A stretch of DNA of 57,070 nucleotides from IMG/VR virus record IMGVR_UViG_3300045988_053137, positions 1 through 57,070 of that record; one strand, given 5' to 3'. This document shows, one piece after another, positions 1,367-57,070 of this stretch (positions within the stretch are counted from its first letter, which is position 1; the number at the start of each line of letters is the position of its first letter). Under the pieces are notes generated by a model. It did not search any database. It was not told the DNA's origin and saw nothing but the letters and a program-made list of their open reading frames with translations. The stretch comes from a virus. Made by a program: the position numbers and the translations under genes.

Positions 1367-1512
1367 TGAGCATTGATGAGTTGCTAAAGATAATTCAAAA
1401 AACTAATCCGACTATGACTAAGGAATTGTTGATATATGAGCTAAGACAATGCCGGTATTCAAGTAAAGCATTGATTTATACAGAAAAATGCTGTATTGAC
1501 AGTAGTGCTTAA
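1363..1512 (+). CDS. Hypothetical 49-aa protein
   Basis: ATGA start/stop overlap with the upstream gene; below the track cutoff; no motif. Confidence 0.35.
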   Translation: MMSIDELLKIIQKTNPTMTKELLIYELRQCRYSSKALIYTEKCCIDSSA

Positions 1513-1587
1513 AAATGCTATTATTTAATAGATGTAAACAATAGATAACTATTATATCATTTTACCTTAATAGAACCATAGTGGAAA

Positions 1588-1631
1588 GTTGCATTGATAC
1601 ATTTTTGTATAGGTGCAACTTATTTTATTTT
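1588..1631 (+). terminator. Hairpin plus T-tract immediately upstream of the Cas5-like gene SD
   Basis: GTTGCA..(ATAC/GTAT inner stem)..TGCAAC followed by TTATTTTATTTT. Confidence 0.45.
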
Positions 1632-1643
1632 GGAGGTTTTGTT

Positions 1644-2342
1644 ATGAGAGTTATTAGGTTAAAAATGTATCAAGAAATGGCTAGATTTAACAATCCATCA
1701 GCGCCAAGAGGCGTAGATTGTTACCCTTTGCCACCATTTAGCACAGTTAACGGATTTATTCATTCAATGTGTCAATGGAAAAAGTATCATAAATTAGATT
1801 ATTTTGTTACTGGCAAAGGTGTTTACAATACCAAAACACAGAAAGAATGGCACGGCGGCAAGCGTTTTAACAAAGTTAGTGATGAAATGCTTAAGCGTTG
1901 GGATATTATAACAGATTATACAGACGGAAGCCACACCGGCTGGGTTAGTACAGTTAAATATCATTTAATGCTAGTTGATTTATACACAACTATATACATC
2001 AAAGCTAATGATAGTGACATAGATGATATATACAATGCGTTACTAAACCCACCGGTATATCCATCATTAGGTGAGTATGGTGATTTATGCAAGATTGAAG
2101 CAGTAGATATTGTGGAACTTAAGGAGCTTGACAAACCTATATCAGCTCTATTAGATATGCAATCTTATATTCCTGTTAATAAAGGCAATTTCGCAGGAAC
2201 TATATATAGAATTAACAACAAATATGAAATCATCAAAGGTCTTAGACGATTCCAGAAAGTTCCTTGTTACTTAGTGGATAAAGGACAGGAAGTTGTTAGT
2301 AATCTTTTTGATGATGATAAACCGATTATTTTTATAGATTAA
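1644..2342 (+). CDS. Orphan Cas5-like RAMP protein (232 aa)
   Basis: GGAGG SD. N-terminus MRVIRLKMYQEMARFNNPSAPRGVDCYPLPPFSTVNGFI fits the Cas5 beta1-alpha1 signature. ALLNPPVYPSLGEYGDLCKIEAV fits the Cas5 LG..E motif. No other cas genes in the window. Confidence 0.55.
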   Translation: MRVIRLKMYQEMARFNNPSAPRGVDCYPLPPFSTVNGFIHSMCQWKKYHKLDYFVTGKGVYNTKTQKEWHGGKRFNKVSDEMLKRWDIITDYTDGSHTGWVSTVKYHLMLVDLYTTIYIKANDSDIDDIYNALLNPPVYPSLGEYGDLCKIEAVDIVELKELDKPISALLDMQSYIPVNKGNFAGTIYRINNKYEIIKGLRRFQKVPCYLVDKGQEVVSNLFDDDKPIIFID

Positions 2343-2348
2343 TTTAAA

Positions 2349-2400
2349 CCCCACGGAATATAATGCAACTTTTTTGCTACCTCCGTGGGGTTCTCTTTTA
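2349..2400 (+). terminator. Hairpin terminator after the Cas5-like gene
   Basis: CCCCACGGA ... TCCGTGGGG 9-bp stem with a large loop, then a T-rich tail. Confidence 0.5.
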
Positions 2401-2940
2401 TATTCGCAATTTCGATTTTGACAATTTTCGAAATTTGGTTCAGATTTTGTTTAAATCTTACTCTAAAAATTGGAAAAATTTTCTCATAAAATATAATGTG
2501 AAATTTTTGAAACCCCCGTCATATGCAATTTTGAAATCCAAAAATCGGTTACACAGAATTTTAATTTTTGCTCCCGATTTCGTTCGGATTTGCCCTGAAA
2601 AATTGATGAAAAACTTTAACGTGGTAAAGCGCCATATATAAACTTTGCCGGCTGCTGTTCGTGCTTGTTTTGGCGTTGTGACTTTGTGATTTGCCTTGTA
2701 CGGTGGTTTTATTATGTCAATGTAGACTTATAAGCCTACGAAACAAAACAGCCTTAAAACGCTTTTAAATGCATTGTGTAAAATGGGTATAATATGCCCT
2801 TGCAAGTCGCGGAAGCTGTCGCTAGTTCTGGAGAATTCACCAGAACGCACACTGCCCGACTGGGTACACTTGTACACCTGAAAAGGCATAAAAAGCCTTA
2901 TATATAAGCATAGCATTATTATATTATTTTTTCAAGGTAC

Positions 2941-2970
2941 GCAAATAAAAGCATATAAAAATATATATGC
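2941..2970 (-). terminator. AT hairpin plus T-run ending the minus-strand transcription unit
   Basis: Minus strand reads GCATATATATTTTTATATGC followed by TTTTATTTGC. Confidence 0.5.
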
Positions 2971-2974
2971 TTAA

Positions 2975-3015
2975 TGCTTGCGGCTGGAATCGAACCAACC
3001 AAACCACAGCAAGCC
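2975..3015 (-). ncRNA. tRNA-like acceptor/T-arm minihelix B (no D stem or anticodon arm)
   Basis: Minus strand: GGCTTGC-TGTGGTTTG-GTTGG-TTCGATT-CCAGC-C-GCAAGC-A; canonical GGTTCGATTCC T-loop. Confidence 0.45.
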
Positions 3016-3039
3016 AAAAAGGGCGCAGATTGTACGCCC
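3016..3039 (-). terminator. Rho-independent terminator after the 58-codon ORF
   Basis: Minus strand GGGCGTACAATCTGCGCCC followed by TTTTT, directly after the stop codon. Confidence 0.6.
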
Positions 3040-3045
3040 TTAAAA

Positions 3046-3222
3046 TTACCAAAATTCTATATATCCGCCGTTTCTGCGGTAATGGAACCACACGCCCGAA
3101 GCGTAACGGATGCATAATATATTATTGCTTTCTTTCCAGCTTTCCACAGGCTCACCGAACCGCCAAACCTCAAAGACGGATTTATGGAAGCTGTAGCACT
3201 CTTTAATGCTTAAATCTGCCAT
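3046..3222 (-). CDS. Hypothetical 58-aa Trp-rich protein (MADLSIKECYSFHKSVFEVWRFGEP...GGYIEFW)
   Basis: GGAGGTG SD 7 nt before the ATG; translated by hand; below the 60-aa track cutoff; own terminator. Confidence 0.5.
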   Translation of the reverse strand: MADLSIKECYSFHKSVFEVWRFGEPVESWKESNNILCIRYASGVWFHYRRNGGYIEFW

Positions 3223-3264
3223 TCTTGCACCTCCGTATTATAATATTATCCCTTGCAGGACAAA

Positions 3265-3305
3265 AGCAAGCCGGGGAATCGAACCCCGGAGGTGCCAGCC
3301 TTGCT
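3265..3305 (-). ncRNA. tRNA-like acceptor/T-arm minihelix A
   Basis: Minus strand: AGCAAG-GCTGGCACCT-CCGGGG-TTCGATT-CCCCGG-CTTGCT then TTTG. It could also act as the terminator of the upstream ORF. Confidence 0.45.
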
Positions 3306-3307
3306 AA

Positions 3308-3562
3308 TTATGCAATTTTTTCAACTTTTCGCCTTTTCTTTTCGTTCTCTGCTCTGCTTATGCTAGAGTCATCAAAAACAATATTATAATTGCTATCTTT
3401 TAAGACTTTAGCCATTTTAAAAGCGTTAATTTTTGGAAAGCTGCAAACGTACTCAATAACATTCATTCTAATATATCCGTTTTCTTTTCCCAGCTTTTCA
3501 AGGTCCTTTTTATAAAAATTGAACATCCTTATTTCTTTCTGTTCTACTGTTTCGTTCATCAT
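3308..3562 (-). CDS. Hypothetical protein (84 aa)
   Basis: AAGGAGGG SD 8 nt upstream; second gene of the minus-strand operon. Confidence 0.65.
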   Translation of the reverse strand: MMNETVEQKEIRMFNFYKKDLEKLGKENGYIRMNVIEYVCSFPKINAFKMAKVLKDSNYNIVFDDSSISRAENEKKRRKVEKIA

Positions 3563-3576
3563 AGTCTTAACCCTCC

Positions 3577-3957
3577 TTATTCTGTAATTCTTTCAAATAT
3601 ATCTATTGTTTTGCGTGCGCTTGATCTCCTCTTTTCAGCCATATAACTATGGCGCTTGCTCTTTAGGGCTTTTTCAGCTTCCTTAAGGTTTACAACTCCC
3701 CAACCTGCGGCCTCTCTTAATAGCTTAACTTCTTTTTTTGGTAGCTTAATGGCTCTTAAAGTGCCGGGATTGATAGAGTAATTATCTTTAATTCCCAGAT
3801 ATAAATCCTGGCAAAGTGGAATATATTCATCGCTCCCCATATTCTCGCCGATATTCCATACATAGAAACCGAATGGAATCTTTTCGACTATCTTATAAAT
3901 ATCTGTTTTCCCTAATGTTTCACTTGTAATTGTGTCATCCTTAACTTCAAATCTCAT
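3577..3957 (-). CDS. Hypothetical protein (126 aa)
   Basis: First gene of the minus-strand operon downstream of a TTGACT/TATTAT promoter; no family recognised. Confidence 0.7.
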   Translation of the reverse strand: MRFEVKDDTITSETLGKTDIYKIVEKIPFGFYVWNIGENMGSDEYIPLCQDLYLGIKDNYSINPGTLRAIKLPKKEVKLLREAAGWGVVNLKEAEKALKSKRHSYMAEKRRSSARKTIDIFERITE

Positions 3958-4516: not shown

Positions 4517-4795
4517 ATGAAAACAATAATCATTGACAAGCTCAAGAAAATGAGCTACGAAGATGGAAAAGCATTTTTGTTAAGTGCTGGGTATGTAGCA
4601 CAGGGGAGCGATGAAAGCCCTTGCTATAGCACAGAAGCCGAAAAGATAATAGATGAACATTTTTATCTTTTTGATGAAGATGATGAACAGGTCGATTTAA
4701 TTAATTACACAATTTTGTGTAATTTAAGTGGAGAGCCTAACGACGAACAAGGAATGGAAATTGTAAGAGCATATTGGGAAAGGATAGAAGATTAA
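4517..4795 (+). CDS. Hypothetical acidic protein (92 aa)
   Basis: AAGGTGG SD 5 nt before ATG 4517 (track ORF begins at GTG 4508); Asp/Glu-rich. Confidence 0.65.
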   Translation: MKTIIIDKLKKMSYEDGKAFLLSAGYVAQGSDESPCYSTEAEKIIDEHFYLFDEDDEQVDLINYTILCNLSGEPNDEQGMEIVRAYWERIED

Positions 4796-4808
4796 GGGAG
4801 GTAAAAAT

Positions 4809-5144
4809 ATGAAATATTTAACAGTTAGAAGAAACAAGAATGGAGAACCTAATAAAACGGATATGAAGAGCCTTGCAAAGTTCTTCACAAATGAAAACGC
4901 GAGAAAATATGTAGATTATGATAGCCATTTATTTGCTATTGAAGAAACAAGAAACGCTGGTAAAGAATTTGTCGGATATACATTTAAAATAGCTACAAAG
5001 GCGGAGAAGTCCGGCGGATGTGATTATTATTTCGGTGAAGTTCTTGATACTGGGGATAAAGTTGTTATATCCACAGAAAACGAGTATAAGAGTTTAGACT
5101 GGGCATATAACAAAGCTTTGGAGATAATCAAAAAAGAGTTCTAA
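4809..5144 (+). CDS. Hypothetical protein (111 aa)
   Basis: GGGAGG SD; followed by a terminator. Confidence 0.7.
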   Translation: MKYLTVRRNKNGEPNKTDMKSLAKFFTNENARKYVDYDSHLFAIEETRNAGKEFVGYTFKIATKAEKSGGCDYYFGEVLDTGDKVVISTENEYKSLDWAYNKALEIIKKEF

Positions 5145-5412: not shown

Positions 5413-5448
5413 ACCCGATAATGTTAATATTGTTATCGGGTTATTTTT
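5413..5448 (+). terminator. Terminator/attenuator-like hairpin between the promoter and terS
   Basis: ACCCGATAA ... TTATCGGGT 9-bp stem followed by TATTTTTAT. Confidence 0.5.
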
Positions 5449-5507
5449 ATGTTATTAATATATATAATATCAGTTAGCTGGATAAGCTCCAGCAGAAAGG
5501 GGAATAT

Positions 5508-6170
5508 ATGGAGAAAGTACAGGAAACACCAGACACGCCCGAAGTATTTCAAAATGACATAGAACTTTATTTGTCACAATTTTGTGAAGAGCACAACATC
5601 GAAGATATGGCCAAAGAACCGCAAAGCAGATGGAACGCCGCTCTAATGTATATAAATAAATATGTTTTTAGTGATAAAAGTATATTAAAGTTAAATAAGA
5701 ATATTAATAAAAATAATACTAACTGTATAATGGATAGTAATTTTTATATGTATGATTTAGATAAATTAGAGTATATATTATATATATATTATTATATGTG
5801 TTCTATGTATGATAAAGAATGTAGTATATTAGGCTTTAGTTTATTAACTGGAATACATAAAGATACTTTTATGGATTGGGGAGCGAATGAAAGAAAGCTA
5901 AGTACAAAGGGCTTCGAATTGGTTCAAAAACTGCGAGATTTTAGAGAAGAAAGCTTGTCAAATAAGCTCGCAACTGGCAATAAAAACCCAGTTGGAATTC
6001 TTGCAATACTCAACAGACATTTCGCTTGGAACTTGCCCGGTGTTAGTAGAGAAAACACTAATAAAACAGCTCTTACAGCCGCAGAAATACGCCAGCAATT
6101 GAGCCAAAATAATAAACAATTAGCAGATAAACAGCAGATAAACGCTGTAAACAATTCTGACACAATTTAA
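5508..6170 (+). CDS. terS: Terminase small subunit
   Basis: MCSMYDKECSILGFSLLTGIHKDTFMDWG ... NKNPVGILAILNRHFAWN matches the HTH plus G.IF.LKN.FGW pattern of Firmicute TerS proteins. Confidence 0.6.
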   Translation: MEKVQETPDTPEVFQNDIELYLSQFCEEHNIEDMAKEPQSRWNAALMYINKYVFSDKSILKLNKNINKNNTNCIMDSNFYMYDLDKLEYILYIYYYMCSMYDKECSILGFSLLTGIHKDTFMDWGANERKLSTKGFELVQKLRDFREESLSNKLATGNKNPVGILAILNRHFAWNLPGVSRENTNKTALTAAEIRQQLSQNNKQLADKQQINAVNNSDTI

Positions 6171-7281: not shown

Positions 7282-7287
7282 CTTAAT

Positions 7288-7359
7288 TGCCCCTTAGCCA
7301 AGCGGTCAAGGCATAAGATTTTGATTCTTACATCATCAGTTCGATTCTGATAGGGGTAG
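7288..7359 (+). tRNA. tRNA-Gln(UUG): tRNA-Gln (anticodon UUG)
   Basis: Hand-folded cloverleaf: acceptor TGCCCCT/AGGGGTA (U1-A72), anticodon loop TTTTGAT, T arm ATCAG-TTCGATT-CTGAT, discriminator G; no encoded CCA. Confidence 0.85.
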
Positions 7360-7775
7360 TTCGCAAGTACTTAATCGTTACTTGCACCTTTGAACTTACT
7401 GGTTTGGTGGAATTACCATGACATTAAGTTCTCCTTTCACCTCATAGCAAGAGCTGTTAAGGACCGTCAGAAAGTCCGTGAGGTTTTACGCATATCCCAC
7501 ACAAATATGCGTAGTAATTATTTCAAATATTTCATAATCAGCAGTTATCCTTAAGGGATAGACAGCGAGCGAAGCCACTTTCTTTGAACAACCAAACTGC
7601 ACGGTGGAATACATCCAGCTTTGCCACGACCTGTTATAGGTGTCATAGCCTATACTGCTGTTAAGGCTAGCACTTTATATTCCCTCAAAACAATATTTTT
7701 AAGCGTATAAATGACCTCTAAAGAATTTATAAATGTGAATTGTTTAATCTCTCTGTGCTAGTCTTTTTATTTTAA
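7360..7775 (+). ncRNA. Hairpin-dense non-coding tract between two tRNAs (candidate large structured RNA)
   Basis: No ORF. Many 6-9-bp stems, for example GCAAGTA/TACTTGC, GAACTTA/TAAGTTC, TACGCATAT/ATATGCGTA and TAGCCT/AGGCTA. Confidence 0.3.
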
Positions 7776-7858
7776 GCCGATATGGGATAAAGGTATTCCA
7801 GTAGCTTGCTAAGCTATCCAACAGAAATGTTGTTCGTGTTCAAGTCACGATGTCGGCG
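7776..7858 (+). tRNA. tRNA-Ser(GCU): tRNA-Ser (anticodon GCU) with a long variable arm
   Basis: Acceptor GCCGATA/TGTCGGC, anticodon loop TTGCTAA, variable arm CCAACAGAAATGTTG, T arm TCGTG-TTCAAGT-CACGA. Confidence 0.85.
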
Positions 7859-7977: not shown

Positions 7978-8098
7978 TACAACAAACTAGGTTAGCTACC
8001 GAAAAGCACTTCCGCTGTGTCTGTTTGTTGTTTTTATCAATCAAGCGGAGCATGTATCACAGGCATACATAAATAATATCAAGCGGAGGTATTCGATT

Positions 8099-9055
8099 AT
8101 GGCAACAATTAGAGTGCATAAAACAAAAAATTACACAGTTATGAGTAATACTCATTTAAGGGATAAGAACTTAAGTCTGAAAGCAAAAGGACTATTGTCT
8201 GTAATGCTTTCATTGCCCGATAATTGGGATTATTCAATAGCTGGGTTAGTTGCAATAAGTAAAGAGAATGAAACAGCTGTTAAATCGGCTTTAAATGAGT
8301 TAAGGGATAATAATTATGTTGTGGTTACTAAAGAAAACCCAACAAAAAGCAATGGTGGAAGAATAAAGTACACCTATGAGGTTTACGAAGAACCATATAA
8401 ACAGAAAATAGAAAAACAAGATACAGAAAATCTAGGGGTTGAATGTCAACAGGTAGAAAACCACGGACAATTAAATACTAATGAATTAAGTACCGATGAA
8501 TTAAATATTAATATACAAAATACTAATGAATTAAATACTAAAAGTAATTCTCTTAACAGAGAACAATGTAATTCTTTTTTACCCAAAAATAAAAAAGTGA
8601 AAGAGTTTAAGCCGATAAGCGAATACTCTCAAAGTGATTGGGAAGTTGCCGAAGAAAGAATGATAAGTAGAGCTGGTAAGATAGCGTATGATTGGACTAA
8701 CGATGAAACACTCAAAGAAAATGTAGAAGCATTCTTTAAATACTTTCTAGATAAACACGGAGAATGCACTGGAGAATATCACTACCCATTAACAGATAAG
8801 GTTTTATCAAGAGTAGTAGATAATTTAACAAAAGAAACCGACATAGAGCGTGATGGATATACAGACACCTATTATGCGGCTATAAGTGATATGGACGATA
8901 ATACAGACTACAAGATGCTAGTTGATGAATATTTCAACACAAAGTTTTCAGCACAATGTGATTACAGCTTAGTTCACTTTTCTTCTGAAAAGGTTTTGAT
9001 TAACATTATGAACCACACTTGTAAGAGCAGTTGGTGCGAAAGTAAGGAATTGTAG
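8099..9055 (+). CDS. Winged-helix DNA-binding, replication-initiator-like protein
   Basis: N-terminus YTVMSNTHLRDKNLSLKAKGLLSVMLSLPDNWDYSIAGL...LNELRDNNYVV, a RepA_N/DnaD-like pattern; internal iteron-like repeats. Confidence 0.6.
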   Translation: MATIRVHKTKNYTVMSNTHLRDKNLSLKAKGLLSVMLSLPDNWDYSIAGLVAISKENETAVKSALNELRDNNYVVVTKENPTKSNGGRIKYTYEVYEEPYKQKIEKQDTENLGVECQQVENHGQLNTNELSTDELNINIQNTNELNTKSNSLNREQCNSFLPKNKKVKEFKPISEYSQSDWEVAEERMISRAGKIAYDWTNDETLKENVEAFFKYFLDKHGECTGEYHYPLTDKVLSRVVDNLTKETDIERDGYTDTYYAAISDMDDNTDYKMLVDEYFNTKFSAQCDYSLVHFSSEKVLINIMNHTCKSSWCESKEL

Positions 9056-9954: not shown

Positions 9955-10224
9955 ATGACGGAACCTTTAAGCAAATTAGCAGAAAAATGTAAAAGTTGCC
10001 CTAAATCTGAAAAATGCGACCATAAAAGAATGGAATTATGCGCTTTAGCGGATTTGCCACCACAAAATCTTGCAAGTGCTACACAAGGTATTTTGATAGA
10101 CAATATGTCACCTATATTGAGGGAAGAAATAAAAAGCCCTTTAAGTCCATTTAGGTACAAAGATGAATTAGAAAAAGCGTTAAATGAGCGAATATACAAA
10201 CAGCTTTTTACTTATGGCTCTTAG
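9955..10224 (+). CDS. Hypothetical protein
   Basis: Co-oriented, tightly packed ORF. Confidence 0.55.
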   Translation: MTEPLSKLAEKCKSCPKSEKCDHKRMELCALADLPPQNLASATQGILIDNMSPILREEIKSPLSPFRYKDELEKALNERIYKQLFTYGS

Positions 10225-10588
10225 AAAGTTGGTGGAAGAAATGAAAGAAACAATTTTATATATTTCAAAATCGGAACAGGATATACGAAGTTTTCTGAAA
10301 TATCTCCAATCAAAGCTAAAAGCAGAGCAAAAGGAATGTACCCTAGATAAAAAAAACGATATTTTAAAAGTGCCAAAATATTACGATATTGTCGGAAAGA
10401 GTGTTCATGGGAATATGCTTGGTGTGGGCTATGGATATTGCAAATATTATTGCTTTTCAGAAGCGTACAACAAAGATAAGTATAGCAATACAGAAAAAGA
10501 AAGGCTTAAAGAAATTCTTATGCACACAAGAGAGGGTGCGGAGAGAATATCGGGACTTGATATTTTATGTATGCTAGGGTTGGTTTAA
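10184..10588 (+). CDS. Hypothetical protein
   Basis: Co-oriented ORF; start uncertain (the alternative is ATG 10214). Confidence 0.5.
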   Translation: MSEYTNSFLLMALRKLVEEMKETILYISKSEQDIRSFLKYLQSKLKAEQKECTLDKKNDILKVPKYYDIVGKSVHGNMLGVGYGYCKYYCFSEAYNKDKYSNTEKERLKEILMHTREGAERISGLDILCMLGLV

Positions 10589-10599
10589 AAGGCGGTGGA

Positions 10600-10800
10600 A
10601 TGATGGTTACACAGAAAGATGTCCACAATAATATAGTTGTAAATGCAAGCGTTTGGCAGAAAAGATATTTATCATTACAATGCGGTGGAAGTGTTGAAAA
10701 GATAAAGGAAGTTGAACAGACAATGGCTAATATGATTAACGGCATTAGCAAGGCACTTGAAAATAGTGGAACAGATTATTTGAATAAACTTGATTTGTAA
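10600..10800 (+). CDS. Hypothetical protein (66 aa)
   Basis: GGCGGTGGA SD before ATGATG at 10600. Confidence 0.5.
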   Translation: MMVTQKDVHNNIVVNASVWQKRYLSLQCGGSVEKIKEVEQTMANMINGISKALENSGTDYLNKLDL

Positions 10801-10812
10801 GCGAGGAATTTT

Positions 10813-11058
10813 ATGAAACACGAAAAAGAATGGCACACTTGCGACAGGTGCGGAAAAGAGATAAAGATAAAACCAAGAAACAAGATAAAATTCACTTGGA
10901 TTGCACAATACTCAAGTTTAGAGCCAGCTTTTGAAGATAGTGATATATGGGCAGAAGCTGAAAATATTCATACATTTAGATTACATAACCACAAGTATAA
11001 TTTATGCCCCAAGTGCAGGAAAGATTTTGAGAGGTTTATGAGAAATGAGCGAATGTAA
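10813..11058 (+). CDS. Zn-ribbon protein
   Basis: CDRCGK ... CPKC. Confidence 0.6.
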   Translation: MKHEKEWHTCDRCGKEIKIKPRNKIKFTWIAQYSSLEPAFEDSDIWAEAENIHTFRLHNHKYNLCPKCRKDFERFMRNERM

Positions 11059-53463: not shown

Positions 53464-53481
53464 AACGTGATAAATGCGGCA
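53464..53481. repeat. Left copy of an 18-bp inverted repeat flanking the integrase gene
   Basis: AACGTGATAAATGCGGCA; its reverse complement occurs at 54917..54934 with one mismatch. Confidence 0.85.
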
Positions 53482-53512
53482 CATTTATTTATATTATAAG
53501 GAGATAAAATAT

Positions 53513-54874
53513 ATGGAATGTGTTGCTTATATGAGAGTATCTACTGAAAAACAGGCTGTTGAGGGCAATGGACTTGATAGCCAAAAAAGAGACATTGAAA
53601 ATTATTGTAGGAAAAATGAGCTTGTAATAACAGATTGGTATATTGACGATGGTTACACAGGTACAAATATGGATAGACCGGAACTTCAAAGACTTGTGAA
53701 TGATTGTAGCCGCAAAAGAGTAAGTTGTGTTGTTGCTTTTAAGCTTGACCGATTATCAAGAAATATGATTGACGGAATATATCTAATTGAAAAAGTATTT
53801 CAAAAATATAATGTTGTGTTTAAATGTGTACACGATAGTGTGAATTATGACAGTCCGATGGAGCAGGCATACACACAGATGATGGCTGTTTTTGCGCAGC
53901 TTGATAAAAATACTATGATGTTGCGTATGCGTGGCGGTATGCTTGAAAGAATTAAGCAGGGTTACTGGATGGGTGGTGGCAATTTGCCGTATTGTTATTC
54001 CTACAGTAAGGAGCAAGGCATATTAATACCTATCCCGGAACGTGCAGAACAGGCAAGAAAAGGTCTTGAATTGTTCATATCTGGCTATTCAGATGCGAAA
54101 ATTAAAGGAATTTGTGGCTTTAAGTCTGAACTTGTTACTAGAAGCATTTTGACCGGCGTTGTAAATATCGGAATGATACCTTACAAAGGCAAAATATATC
54201 AAGGAAAACACGAACCTGTTTTTGATAAAGATAGGTTTAATCTTGGATTAGAACTAAGAAAGTCAAGGTGTTCAGCAAAAACTTACTGCATAACCGAACC
54301 TAATTTACTGACCGGATTATGTTATTGTGGCATTTGCGGCTGCAAAATGCGTTATCAAAAATGGGGTAGTGAAAAGCACAAGATTTATTGCTGTTCAAGA
54401 AATAAATCACTTTCATATCTGCCCAATTATAATGCAAGCTGTAATAATTCACTTGAATGGGCGGACGAGATAGAAAAGCAAGTAGAAGAAGAAATCCTTA
54501 AAATATCACTTGATTTATCATCTTACAAGCCAAAAGAAAAGGCGACAAAACTTGAAATTATGCAATCACAGCTTGAAAAAGAGCAGATTAAACTAAAAAG
54601 ATTATACAATCTGTATGCTGACGGAAACGATACTGTCTTAGAAATGATTAAAGAACTGGAAGCACAGATTAAAGAAATGAAATTAAACATTACTGCTGAA
54701 AGCAAAAACGCAATCAATACGCAGAAAAAGGAATTTGTTTATGAGAACATAAAAAAACTTGCCGACATTTGGGATAAGGTCGACAAGAAACAAAAGAACT
54801 TGATACTAAAGACTATAATTGACAAGATAGTAATTGTCAATGGAAATATTGAAATACAGCTTAAGAATTTTTAG
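53513..54874 (+). CDS. int: Large serine recombinase (integrase)
   Basis: MECVAYMRVSTEKQ...DSQ...DDGYTGTNMDRPELQRL...KLDRLSRN; Cys-rich zinc ribbon and C-terminal coiled coil. Confidence 0.9.
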   Translation: MECVAYMRVSTEKQAVEGNGLDSQKRDIENYCRKNELVITDWYIDDGYTGTNMDRPELQRLVNDCSRKRVSCVVAFKLDRLSRNMIDGIYLIEKVFQKYNVVFKCVHDSVNYDSPMEQAYTQMMAVFAQLDKNTMMLRMRGGMLERIKQGYWMGGGNLPYCYSYSKEQGILIPIPERAEQARKGLELFISGYSDAKIKGICGFKSELVTRSILTGVVNIGMIPYKGKIYQGKHEPVFDKDRFNLGLELRKSRCSAKTYCITEPNLLTGLCYCGICGCKMRYQKWGSEKHKIYCCSRNKSLSYLPNYNASCNNSLEWADEIEKQVEEEILKISLDLSSYKPKEKATKLEIMQSQLEKEQIKLKRLYNLYADGNDTVLEMIKELEAQIKEMKLNITAESKNAINTQKKEFVYENIKKLADIWDKVDKKQKNLILKTIIDKIVIVNGNIEIQLKNF

Positions 54875-54916
54875 CACAAACTTAATGCAGTTCCTATAGC
54901 ATATAGGAAGTGCTAA

Positions 54917-54934
54917 TGCCGCATTTATCGCGTT
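54917..54934. repeat. Right copy of the integrase-flanking inverted repeat
   Basis: TGCCGCATTTATCGCGTT. Confidence 0.85.
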
Positions 54935-56876: not shown

Positions 56877-57070
56877 ATGGAAATAACAGGAATTGCATTA
56901 CAAACAGTTGCCGCCGGAGAAGATGTTGCATTTACAGAAACACCGGTATGCGGTAGCAAATGTATAGTACACAGACAGGGAAGCGGAATTATCAAGCTAA
57001 GAGGTATCACAAATCAGTGCAAGGCTAGATTTTTGGTATCGTATTCCGGCAACATTCAGATTCCGACAGG
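56877..57070 (+). CDS. 5' part of the BclA-CTD/C1q-like protein gene (continues at nt 142..367 of the window)
   Basis: AGAGAGG SD, ATG 56877; runs into the terminal repeat in frame. Confidence 0.6.
   Translation, partial: MEITGIALQTVAAGEDVAFTETPVCGSKCIVHRQGSGIIKLRGITNQCKARFLVSYSGNIQIPT
56930..57070. repeat. Second copy of the terminal direct repeat
   Basis: Identical to nt 1..141. Confidence 0.95.

Follow-up and report, generated by a model that had tools for sequence, protein, structure and literature searches.

AcrIB3, a Cas5 homologue found on Listeria mobile elements, inhibits type I-B CRISPR (short palindromic repeats that are clustered and regularly interspaced) systems; it co-purifies with Cascade and blocks its DNA binding, and its relatives have been reported in Listeria only (Katz et al., bioRxiv 10.1101/2023.06.24.545427). 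The protein is without an 18-residue hook that is required for Cas8b binding, and its activity is lost when the hook is restored (review, PMC13131331). On the RNA side, autorepression through CreR is a known feature of I-B systems (bioRxiv 10.1101/2023.03.10.532045). Viral mimics of CreR and CreA, the Cracr RNAs, have 24-nt pseudo-spacers, form multi-unit arrays aimed at related strains and cooperate with co-encoded anti-CRISPR (Acr) proteins; in CreR-regulated hosts the inhibition of Cascade alone de-represses the cas operon (bioRxiv 10.1101/2024.10.29.618823). The word 'Cas5' is not mentioned in that paper. Racr RNAs are solitary repeat units, one of which forms a bicistron with a protein inhibitor (racrIC1-acrIC5), and RacrIF1, which has no 5' handle, acts by failing to recruit Cas5 and Cas8 (Camara-Wilpert et al. 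2023, PMC10651486).

We have compared with these systems a locus in the IMG/VR virus record IMGVR_UViG_3300045988_053137 (positions 1 to 57,070; this whole stretch of 57,070 nucleotides is referred to as the window). Its protein part is an orphan gene for a Cas5b homologue without the hook loop, hereafter cas5v (1644..2342, + strand, 232 aa), and its RNA part is a leader that resembles a CRISPR RNA (crRNA). An earlier note, made from the sequence alone, had proposed that a solitary Cas5-like protein acts together with a repeat-like decoy RNA from the tract behind the gene (2391-2640). The crRNA-like gene described here lies upstream instead, is previously unreported and is in our opinion the more interesting of the two. 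We consider it fairly probable that this RNA and cas5v, expressed from one promoter, form a two-part unit directed against type I-B CRISPR systems. Each kind of component is already known, while their combination, with a Cas5 mimic and a crRNA-like RNA sharing a single unit, is new.

The crRNA-like leader of cas5v

The leader consists, in this order, of a promoter, a crRNA-type 5' handle, a 24-nt pseudo-spacer, a 23-nt pseudo-repeat, a terminator, a Shine-Dalgarno (SD) sequence and the ATG. We have followed it through the relatives of cas5v in IMG/VR, of which there are 218, many of them from one large sample; the best 80, all at least 89% identical, are the basis of the counts given below as "of 80". 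The promoter (1496..1524, +) is of the sigma-70 type, with TTGACA, a 17-nt spacing, TATTAT and a TG before the -10 box. It is thus an extended -10 promoter close to the consensus, which it matches at 11 of 12 positions, and it is kept in all relatives. At the predicted transcription start stands the 8-nt handle ATGTAAAC (1532..1539, +), identical to the 8 nt with which type I-B repeats end (ATGTAAAG/T). It begins 7 nt past the -10 box, the same spacing being found in a lineage whose Cas5 is 64% identical (L175/L186), and the sequence suggests that transcription starts at the handle itself. The pseudo-spacer AATAGATAACTATTATATCATTTT (1540..1563, +) comes in two variants among the relatives, with differences at positions 4, 10 and 13. 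The pseudo-repeat ACCTTAATAGAACCATAGTGGAA (1564..1586, +), 40 nt from the promoter, corresponds to positions 1-23 of a I-B repeat, with the CCAnnnTGG hairpin as well as the Cas6 processing site. The last 8 nt of the repeat are absent at 1587 and are found 24 nt upstream of the pseudo-repeat instead; an intrinsic terminator stands in for them (1587..1631, +; stem 1587-1620, U-run 1621-1631).

A position-specific scoring matrix (PSSM) built from 31 real I-B repeats, with 200 shuffles as control, found the window's best match to the portion of the repeat that mature crRNAs keep at 1564-1586. Over repeat positions 1-23 it scores 22.0 bits, where the shuffles reach 21.1 at most, and over positions 8-23 it scores 23.5, where they reach 19.8. 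The I-B arrays beside operon-encoded relatives of cas5v use the repeat class GTTTTAATCTAACCATAGTGGAATGTAAAT, and genuine arrays with as many as 61 copies turned up in a metagenome scan, with the repeats GATTTAATAGAACCATA[C/G]TGGAATGTAAAG and GTATTAATAGAACCATATTGGAATGTAAAG, repeated every ~65-66 nt, i.e. with ~36-nt spacers. Several of the contigs with matching arrays are labelled human gut metagenome. The leader stretch TTAATAGAACCATAGTGGAA is identical at 20 of 20 nt to the array repeats GATTTAATAGAACCATAGTGGAATGTAAAG (repeat positions 4-23). As to other CRISPR components, tblastn with eight Cas proteins from a cognate-type I-B locus and four from a Listeria locus matched only the cas5v open reading frame (ORF) in the window, PADLOC recognised no further cas gene among its 65 ORFs, and a CRISPR array is absent: the leader has a single partial repeat and a pseudo-spacer of 24 nt, where a bona fide array has at least two full repeats with spacers of normal length. 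The earlier note had also described cas5v as the only cas gene, without an array; what it overlooked is the repeat-derived unit at 1532-1586. Its idea of a repeat-mimic RNA accompanying the protein probably holds for the 5' leader (1532-1631) and does not hold for the downstream tract, and this RNA looks like a whole crRNA-like unit with handle, pseudo-spacer and repeat rather than a bare repeat.

The leader is more conserved than the coding sequence (95.3% against 92.2% identity) and has a fold z-score of -4.5. A long-range helix, P1 (1568..1644, +), is predicted in the window and in L175, in which the 5' half of the pseudo-repeat (1568-1577) pairs with 1635-1644, a stretch that begins where the SD ends and reaches the A of the AUG. 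In the alignment, 99% of the P1 cells are paired, against 37-51% when the helix is slid; there are two fully compensatory pairs (AA:UU to UU:AA) and the one-sided variants all remain paired. The terminator stem is retained in the L175 lineage with compensatory and wobble changes. Terminator and P1 together are 99% paired over 13 distinct leaders, with three compensatory pairs, a score matched by 0 of 500 shuffles. We regard this support for the structure as moderate, since the fold was derived from one of the sequences and only two deep lineages contribute. P1 may have a regulatory role.

Units of the same kind accompany other orphan cas5 genes. The 64%-identity lineage has the leader layout of the window. 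In the lineage with 54% identity (L011), a complete 31-nt repeat precedes the pseudo-spacer and this first repeat is processing-competent; one member (L196) has three units upstream of its cas5. A lineage with 34% identity (L233) has a five-repeat, four-pseudo-spacer array directly after its orphan cas5 (3540-3800), with related pseudo-spacers of 18-20 nt, its own promoter and a terminator after the truncated last repeat. Orphan cas5 and pseudo-array are physically coupled in four of six lineages, in two arrangements, and the terminator layout of the window is also seen in the units of L011, L233, L328 and L353. No 6-nt periodicity was found in the distance from handle to hairpin, which across lineages is 36, 29, 27, 31 and 27 nt (hand counts). 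Separately, I-B crRNA-like units were noticed before unrelated small genes in L353 (about 5440-5700), L271 (about 1310-1570) and L328 (minus strand, about 4670-5050), and these genes may be unrecognised anti-CRISPR candidates. A broad pattern for short-spacer mini-arrays in viral contigs was abandoned as too unspecific (6 of the first 120 matches were real).

The RNA can be compared with a regulatory RNA of the hosts. A host-type locus (L226; cas6-cas8b-cas7-cas5-cas3-cas4-cas1-cas2-array), the repeat of which matches the viral one, has a divergent mini-array upstream of cas6 (700-870). It opens with a pseudo-repeat that has ATGTAAAC at its end; a pseudo-spacer of 24 nt comes next, and then a second pseudo-repeat without its last 8 nt. 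The pseudo-spacer matches a site that has CCT as its protospacer-adjacent motif (PAM) and borders directly on the -35 box of the cas6 promoter, over 14 consecutive informative positions, the sole early mismatch being at the flipped position 6. Three more host loci, fetched via their Cas6 homologues, contain the same circuit (mini-arrays at L363 183-570, L364 2023-2505 and L365 1367-1635), with runs of 10-14 matches and mismatches at positions 6 and 12. Pseudo-spacers and targets differ among the four loci yet covary. These mini-arrays upstream of the host cas6 are CreR-type autorepression RNAs. The viral RNA has the same handle as that of L226, the same 24-nt length of the pseudo-spacer and a truncated second repeat, and the pseudo-spacers also share an AATTG start (viral variant 2) and a TCA..TTTT tail. 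The two differ in location, the host CreR genes being divergent upstream of cas6 and matching their own promoter, while the viral copy is found in a phage upstream of an orphan cas5.

This resemblance to CreR-type RNAs at four host I-B loci puts the viral RNA closest to the Cracr and Racr RNAs. As in Cracr, a viral unit of handle, short pseudo-spacer and pseudo-repeat that resembles the host CreR is located outside a cas locus; the pseudo-spacer of CracrIE1 also has 24 nt, and both groups include multi-unit arrays with related pseudo-spacers (here L233) and a co-encoded protein Acr (here a candidate). Unlike Cracr, the window lineage has a promoter in place of the first pseudo-repeat, which would start the RNA at the handle, and its RNA stands as a leader before a cas5 homologue. 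With Racr RNAs it has in common that it is a promoter-proximal, repeat-derived phage RNA with an intact Cas6-binding part, and racrIC1-acrIC5 resembles the unit of the window in that a transcript is shared with a protein Acr (again, here a candidate). In contrast to Racr RNAs, the viral leader has a conserved handle ATGTAAAC and carries a pseudo-spacer instead of being a bare repeat.

The Cas5-like protein and its orphan relatives

The gene cas5v starts behind the SD GGAGG at 1632-1636, which agrees with the strong SD that the earlier note had read for this 232-aa ORF. The NCBIfam model TIGR01895 (cas_Cas5t) matches residues 1-218 on profile positions 1-204 of 217 (E=1.8e-22, 80 bits). Since the curated cutoff is 96.7 bits, cas5v is to be taken as a homologue, not an equivalog, of this family. 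Several Cas5/Cas5b models of PADLOC match as well (Cas5b, E=4.8e-23), and no match was obtained in Pfam or in a sequence search of the PDB. The Cas5 assignment of the earlier note is thereby borne out by profiles, and the two motifs on which it was based coincide with invariant columns of the family alignment (P28, L29, P30, P31, S33, G37 and H40; P136, S141, L142, G143 and D147). The structural comparison leads to the same Cas5/RAMP fold: with an AlphaFold2 model (predicted local distance difference test 80, predicted template-modelling score 0.72), the best PDB matches in Foldseek were chains of the Cascade entries 9cro, 8fcj, 9cp1 and 4tvx, of types I-A, I-B-CAST, I-E and I-C (template-modelling scores 0.45-0.53, E down to 4e-5). 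From the chain lengths we take the matched chains to be the Cas5 subunits. The ratio of nonsynonymous to synonymous substitution rates (dN/dS), calculated for cas5v against nine relatives, was 0.08-0.17, a range at which neutrality fails, and the gene is under purifying selection. A hairpin with a T-tract does flank it on either side, as had been proposed. One is the leader terminator already described, the other closes the unit (2347..2400, +) with perfect inverted arms of 11 nt (2347-2357 and 2382-2392) and TCTCTTTT behind them; 49 of 80 relatives carry it, at 98% identity.

In species-representative genomes the matches (at most 36% identical) are all flanked by cas8b, cas7 and cas3, the best one, at 36%, being itself within an operon. 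The closer relatives are all in phage DNA, without cas7, cas8 or cas3 nearby. Beside the window type, the orphan lineages are L175/L186 (64%), L011/L177/L181-185 (54%), L179 (41%), L007 (36%) and L233 (34%). In neighbour-joining trees seven orphan lineages were monophyletic in 93 of 100 bootstraps, and the clade is full-length and conserved across a span of 34-100% identity. Some relatives adjoin ArdA and Lar and others belong to an operon resembling acr-aca operons (a 90-aa gene, a helix-turn-helix gene and cas5) by the lysis genes at the prophage end. Since the close homologues are always orphan phage genes, the alternative raised in the earlier note, that the gene is a decaying fragment of a complete cas operon, fails. 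A search of IMG/VR with the orphan Cas5 P0014 found nothing. Two tblastn matches labelled 'Listeria phage' (GenBank OR846720.1 and OR848150.1, L180) were rejected as viral orphans or AcrIB3, as these UNVERIFIED_ORG records hold a type I-B stretch with a full cas8b-cas7-cas5-cas3 operon; it is probably host DNA and not a phage-borne system.

The obvious protein to set beside cas5v is AcrIB3, the sequence of which was taken from Table S2 of Katz et al. Both are full-length Cas5b homologues of about 230 aa, located on mobile elements outside cas loci, and both are without the loop that aligns to the 18-residue hook, as are the other members of the orphan clade. Between the motifs Y(V/I)P and G(T/A).(Y/F) there are 7 aa in cas5v and 6 aa in AcrIB3, against 24 aa in the Listeria Cas5 and 39 aa in the Cas5 of L226; the deletion of AcrIB3 with respect to the Listeria Cas5 at the hook site is of exactly 18 residues. 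Both proteins can be read as defective Cascade subunits, in the case of cas5v as a prediction. The two are nevertheless only 28% identical, AcrIB3 being 44-46% identical to Listeria-type operon Cas5 proteins, and AcrIB3 joined the orphan clade in only 29 of 100 bootstraps, so that they did not group as one clade. The orphan clade has its own 4-residue W-x-G-G insertion, and RW or RF for the conserved RHQ, while AcrIB3 keeps the RHQ and has no W-x-G-G; the insertion site differs from that of an AcrIB3 insertion, an extra loop predicted to touch Cas7, and the segment aligned to the latter also occurs in some operon Cas5. The hosts differ as well (Listeria for AcrIB3, a spore-forming gut Firmicute for this phage), and no RNA partner has been reported for AcrIB3. 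The low joint monophyly (29/100), together with the separate orphan clade (93/100), suggests that cas5v arose apart from AcrIB3, and we read the alignments as a sign that Cas5b was co-opted independently, or else very long ago, and that the same loop was lost convergently. The defective-subunit hypothesis of the earlier note thus has gained a precedent in AcrIB3 and a shared loss of the hook loop, with the poisoning of Cascade by cas5v standing as a prediction.

The downstream tract and the surrounding genome

The non-coding tract at 2391-2640, described in the earlier note as repeat-rich, could not be confirmed as such. The motif CAATTTTGAAAT, with up to 2 mismatches, has 21 matches in the whole window against 24.5 expected, and just one of them is in the tract. 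The flagged TTTGAAAC and the palindrome are not kept in 92%-identical relatives, and 2391-2640 has no match to the PSSM of 31 I-B repeats and none in Rfam. On these grounds (motif statistics, conservation, PSSM and Rfam) the tract was rejected as a CRISPR-repeat mimic. It is present in 70-76 of 80 relatives and entirely replaced in a related prophage (L001), and 2401-2520 is the least conserved segment nearby (83.5% identity). A 92-aa ORF at 2363..2641 was discarded as a gene, as indels break its frame in relatives. More generally, about 650 nt (2401-3060) are without a credible ORF and are found in most relatives with 84-94% identity. They include a promoter-like site at 2470-2497 and, at 2764-2905 (+), a second one (TTTAAA, 18 nt, TATAAT) followed by a well-folding stretch of 110 nt (-35.2 kcal/mol, z = -3.3) that is present in 56 of 80 relatives, belongs to no Rfam family and may be a small RNA. 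Two tRNA-like pieces with GGTTCGATTCC (T-arm and acceptor-like stem) at 2968-3016 (-) and 3250-3302 (-) flank a 58-aa ORF with a good SD (3046..3222, -); one of them doubles as a terminator-like hairpin of the upstream gene. Rfam gave a sub-threshold match to a tRNA-Sec-like model at 2980-3068 (-; E=0.009) and ARAGORN found no tRNA.

The window is a complete temperate siphovirus-type genome. Its positions 1-141 recur at 56930-57070 (~141 nt, hand count), so the record is complete and either circularly closed or terminally redundant, with a unit length of about 56.9 kb; the cut point falls within a 139-aa ORF. Its gene products include a portal of the SPP1 type, a major capsid protein E, RecT, SSB and a GH25 lysin, and its integrase (53474..54874) is a large serine recombinase. 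After the attachment region the genes run rightward as int, ORFs of 173, 261, 139, 204, 106 and 49 aa, and then the cas5v unit. By this order, six ORFs and about 3.7 kb separate the integrase from cas5v, counted over the circular junction; contrary to what had been assumed, the two are not neighbours. The second gene upstream of the unit (1046-1366) is a 106-aa ImmA/IrrE-like metallopeptidase fragment (Peptidase_M78, E=1e-4), separated from it by the 49-aa ORF and without an adjoining partner helix-turn-helix repressor. Further along, a tRNA-Gln(TTG), a tRNA-Ser(GCT) and an Rfam int-alpA RNA match (42.5 bits) are located among 7287-7360, 7776-7858 and 7980-8046, the int-alpA match just 5' of a replication-initiator-like gene (8099..9055). 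The first 8 kb had no megablast match among GenBank phages.

A near-identical prophage is found in the 407-kb metagenomic contig ERZ27309969:k141_78020, where its neighbours are spoIIAA, spoIIAB and a sigma-factor gene that is truncated, which makes the host a spore-forming Firmicute. In L001 the related prophage interrupts a sigma-factor gene after spoIIAA and spoIIAB (L001 5175-5565, corresponding to about 54879-54930 of the window), the host reading frame (...FSTYAVP) running on into phage DNA. The core ATGCAGTTCCTAT is common to L001 and the window and adjoins the phage serine recombinase gene, and the insertion has the appearance of an intervening element within a sigma gene for sporulation. 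In L001 the cas5 homologue (10001-10858) has 285 aa, its last residues being swapped for an acidic extension of ~60 aa, and a 228-aa gene replaces the terminator and the downstream tract.

The unit as a possible anti-CRISPR device

In the reading that we favour, the RNA part (about 100 nt, 1532-1631) would be a virus-borne copy of the CreR-type regulatory RNA of the host. It would load on the host Cas6, Cas7 and Cas5 and displace immune crRNAs. Its 24-nt guide would bind DNA without licensing Cas3 and would steer the captured complexes to a promoter, probably that of the host cas6, as viral Cracr RNAs do; at the minimum, Cas proteins would be sequestered as with Racr RNAs, a role that this RNA may have even though Racr RNAs, as described, act by being without a handle. 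Given the terminator in the leader, most transcripts would end as a ~100-nt small RNA and a minority would read through, and from these cas5v would be made. Without the Cas8b-holding loop, cas5v would replace Cas5 in Cascade and the resulting complexes could not engage target DNA, similarly to AcrIB3. A CreR mimic would be a logical companion to such a poison, since Cascade inhibition alone de-represses the cas operon in CreR-regulated hosts. We infer every function of the locus here, including the processing of the RNA by Cas6, all protein-RNA contacts and any inhibition of CRISPR.

Several observations weigh against this proposal. Cracr RNAs are defined by a match of at least 9 PAM-proximal bp to the host CreR spacer or to a cas or creT promoter, and the viral pseudo-spacers agree with the four host promoter targets at only 6-9 of 14 informative positions. 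Targets of the pseudo-spacers were sought in the phage, 80 host I-B loci, 55 metagenome loci and the four cas6 upstream regions, and none was convincing; searches at low stringency gave AT-rich noise only. Membership among the Cracr RNAs is for these reasons likely by homology and unproven by the defining test. The Cas5 of L226, the nearest host locus with a matching repeat, is only 27% identical to cas5v, which leaves the fit of cas5v into a Cascade of this type unproven, and the position of the hook in cas5v is predicted from alignment, not structure. If a Cas5 without the hook blocks DNA binding, promoter repression by the RNA would be lost along with it; the two parts may therefore be in conflict, except where they work on separate pools or at separate times. 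Finally, the layout of promoter, RNA, hairpin and ribosome-binding site also precedes unrelated genes in other phages, and the orphan cas5 lineages P0013 and P0014 have no repeat unit. The pairing of RNA and protein is accordingly modular and not obligate, and RNA and cas5v may be modular neighbours rather than a dedicated pair.

Other explanations start from the same features. The leader might be both sensor and effector. The pseudo-repeat, which directly adjoins a terminator, would lock the ribosome-binding site of cas5v by means of P1, and the lock would open when the host Cas6b bound or cleaved the leader, so that production of cas5v would be confined to cells whose type I-B system is active. 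The viral Cas5 would then cap the released handle-bearing RNA, the virus-host hybrid Cascade shutting the host cas promoter. We think this unlikely; it would amount to an anti-CRISPR switch that responds to CRISPR and in which the virus reserves a Cas subunit of its own for its own guide. We are similarly doubtful of a hijack, in which the viral Cas5 is a working adaptor that caps the promoter-defined 5'-triphosphate handle of the viral RNA and draws the host Cas7, Cas8b and Cas6 into a virus-host hybrid complex, by which a competing phage or a host promoter (of cas, a CreT-like toxin or another gene) is silenced. In its favour, the handle lies exactly at the predicted transcription start in two lineages, the orphan clade has its own conserved W-x-G-G insertion, cas5 and pseudo-array are physically coupled in most lineages, and the 24-nt pseudo-spacer, the variants of which differ only within the first 13 nt, is fit for binding without cleavage. 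The loss of the hook loop opposes productive docking of Cas8b, and hence PAM-dependent DNA binding, and the absence of a target in the phage, the host loci and the four cas6 promoters, as well as the same RNA architecture before unrelated genes, also speak against a hijack.

It is less probable still that the leader acts only in cis, with the host Cas6 or cas5v binding it and controlling termination or translation via P1. Such a role would account for the pairing of the pseudo-repeat with the SD-AUG region, with its two compensatory pairs, and for a terminator between promoter and ribosome-binding site. P1 alone does not explain why handle and pseudo-spacer are conserved, the L011 lineage retains a full processing-competent first repeat, and in the 34%-identity lineage the pseudo-array follows the gene and has a promoter and a terminator to itself. 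A function unrelated to CRISPR, or a decaying passenger from a captured cas operon, would be in line with the NCBIfam score under the curated cutoff and the lack of a Pfam match; we consider it very improbable in view of the low dN/dS, the full-length conservation of the clade and the linkage to CRISPR-derived RNA and anti-defence neighbours. As for the decoy RNA of the earlier note, the tract 2391-2640 is non-coding, widespread among the relatives and has a promoter-like site. With its motif at chance frequency, the flagged copies unconserved, no PSSM or Rfam match and the whole tract replaced in L001, we give this version hardly any credence.

If the unit is indeed a two-part inhibitor, its significance lies in bringing together what has been described recently but separately, Cas-protein mimics (AcrIB3) and viral crRNA-like RNAs (Racr and Cracr), in one transcription unit. 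It is a concrete case of a Cascade-disabling protein encoded alongside an RNA that requires Cascade. For type I-B tools, its components might be of use as off-switches or as guide scaffolds of compact size. An independent origin of cas5v, with loss of the same loop as in AcrIB3, would be convergent evidence for the conversion of a Cascade subunit into an inhibitor. The leader also suggests that a crRNA-like 5' handle could be made by transcription initiation and not by Cas6 cleavage. Along with the host loci, characterised by the PAM CCT and a target abutting the -35 box, the unit points to CreR autorepression as a common feature of the type I-B systems with which gut Firmicutes face their phages.

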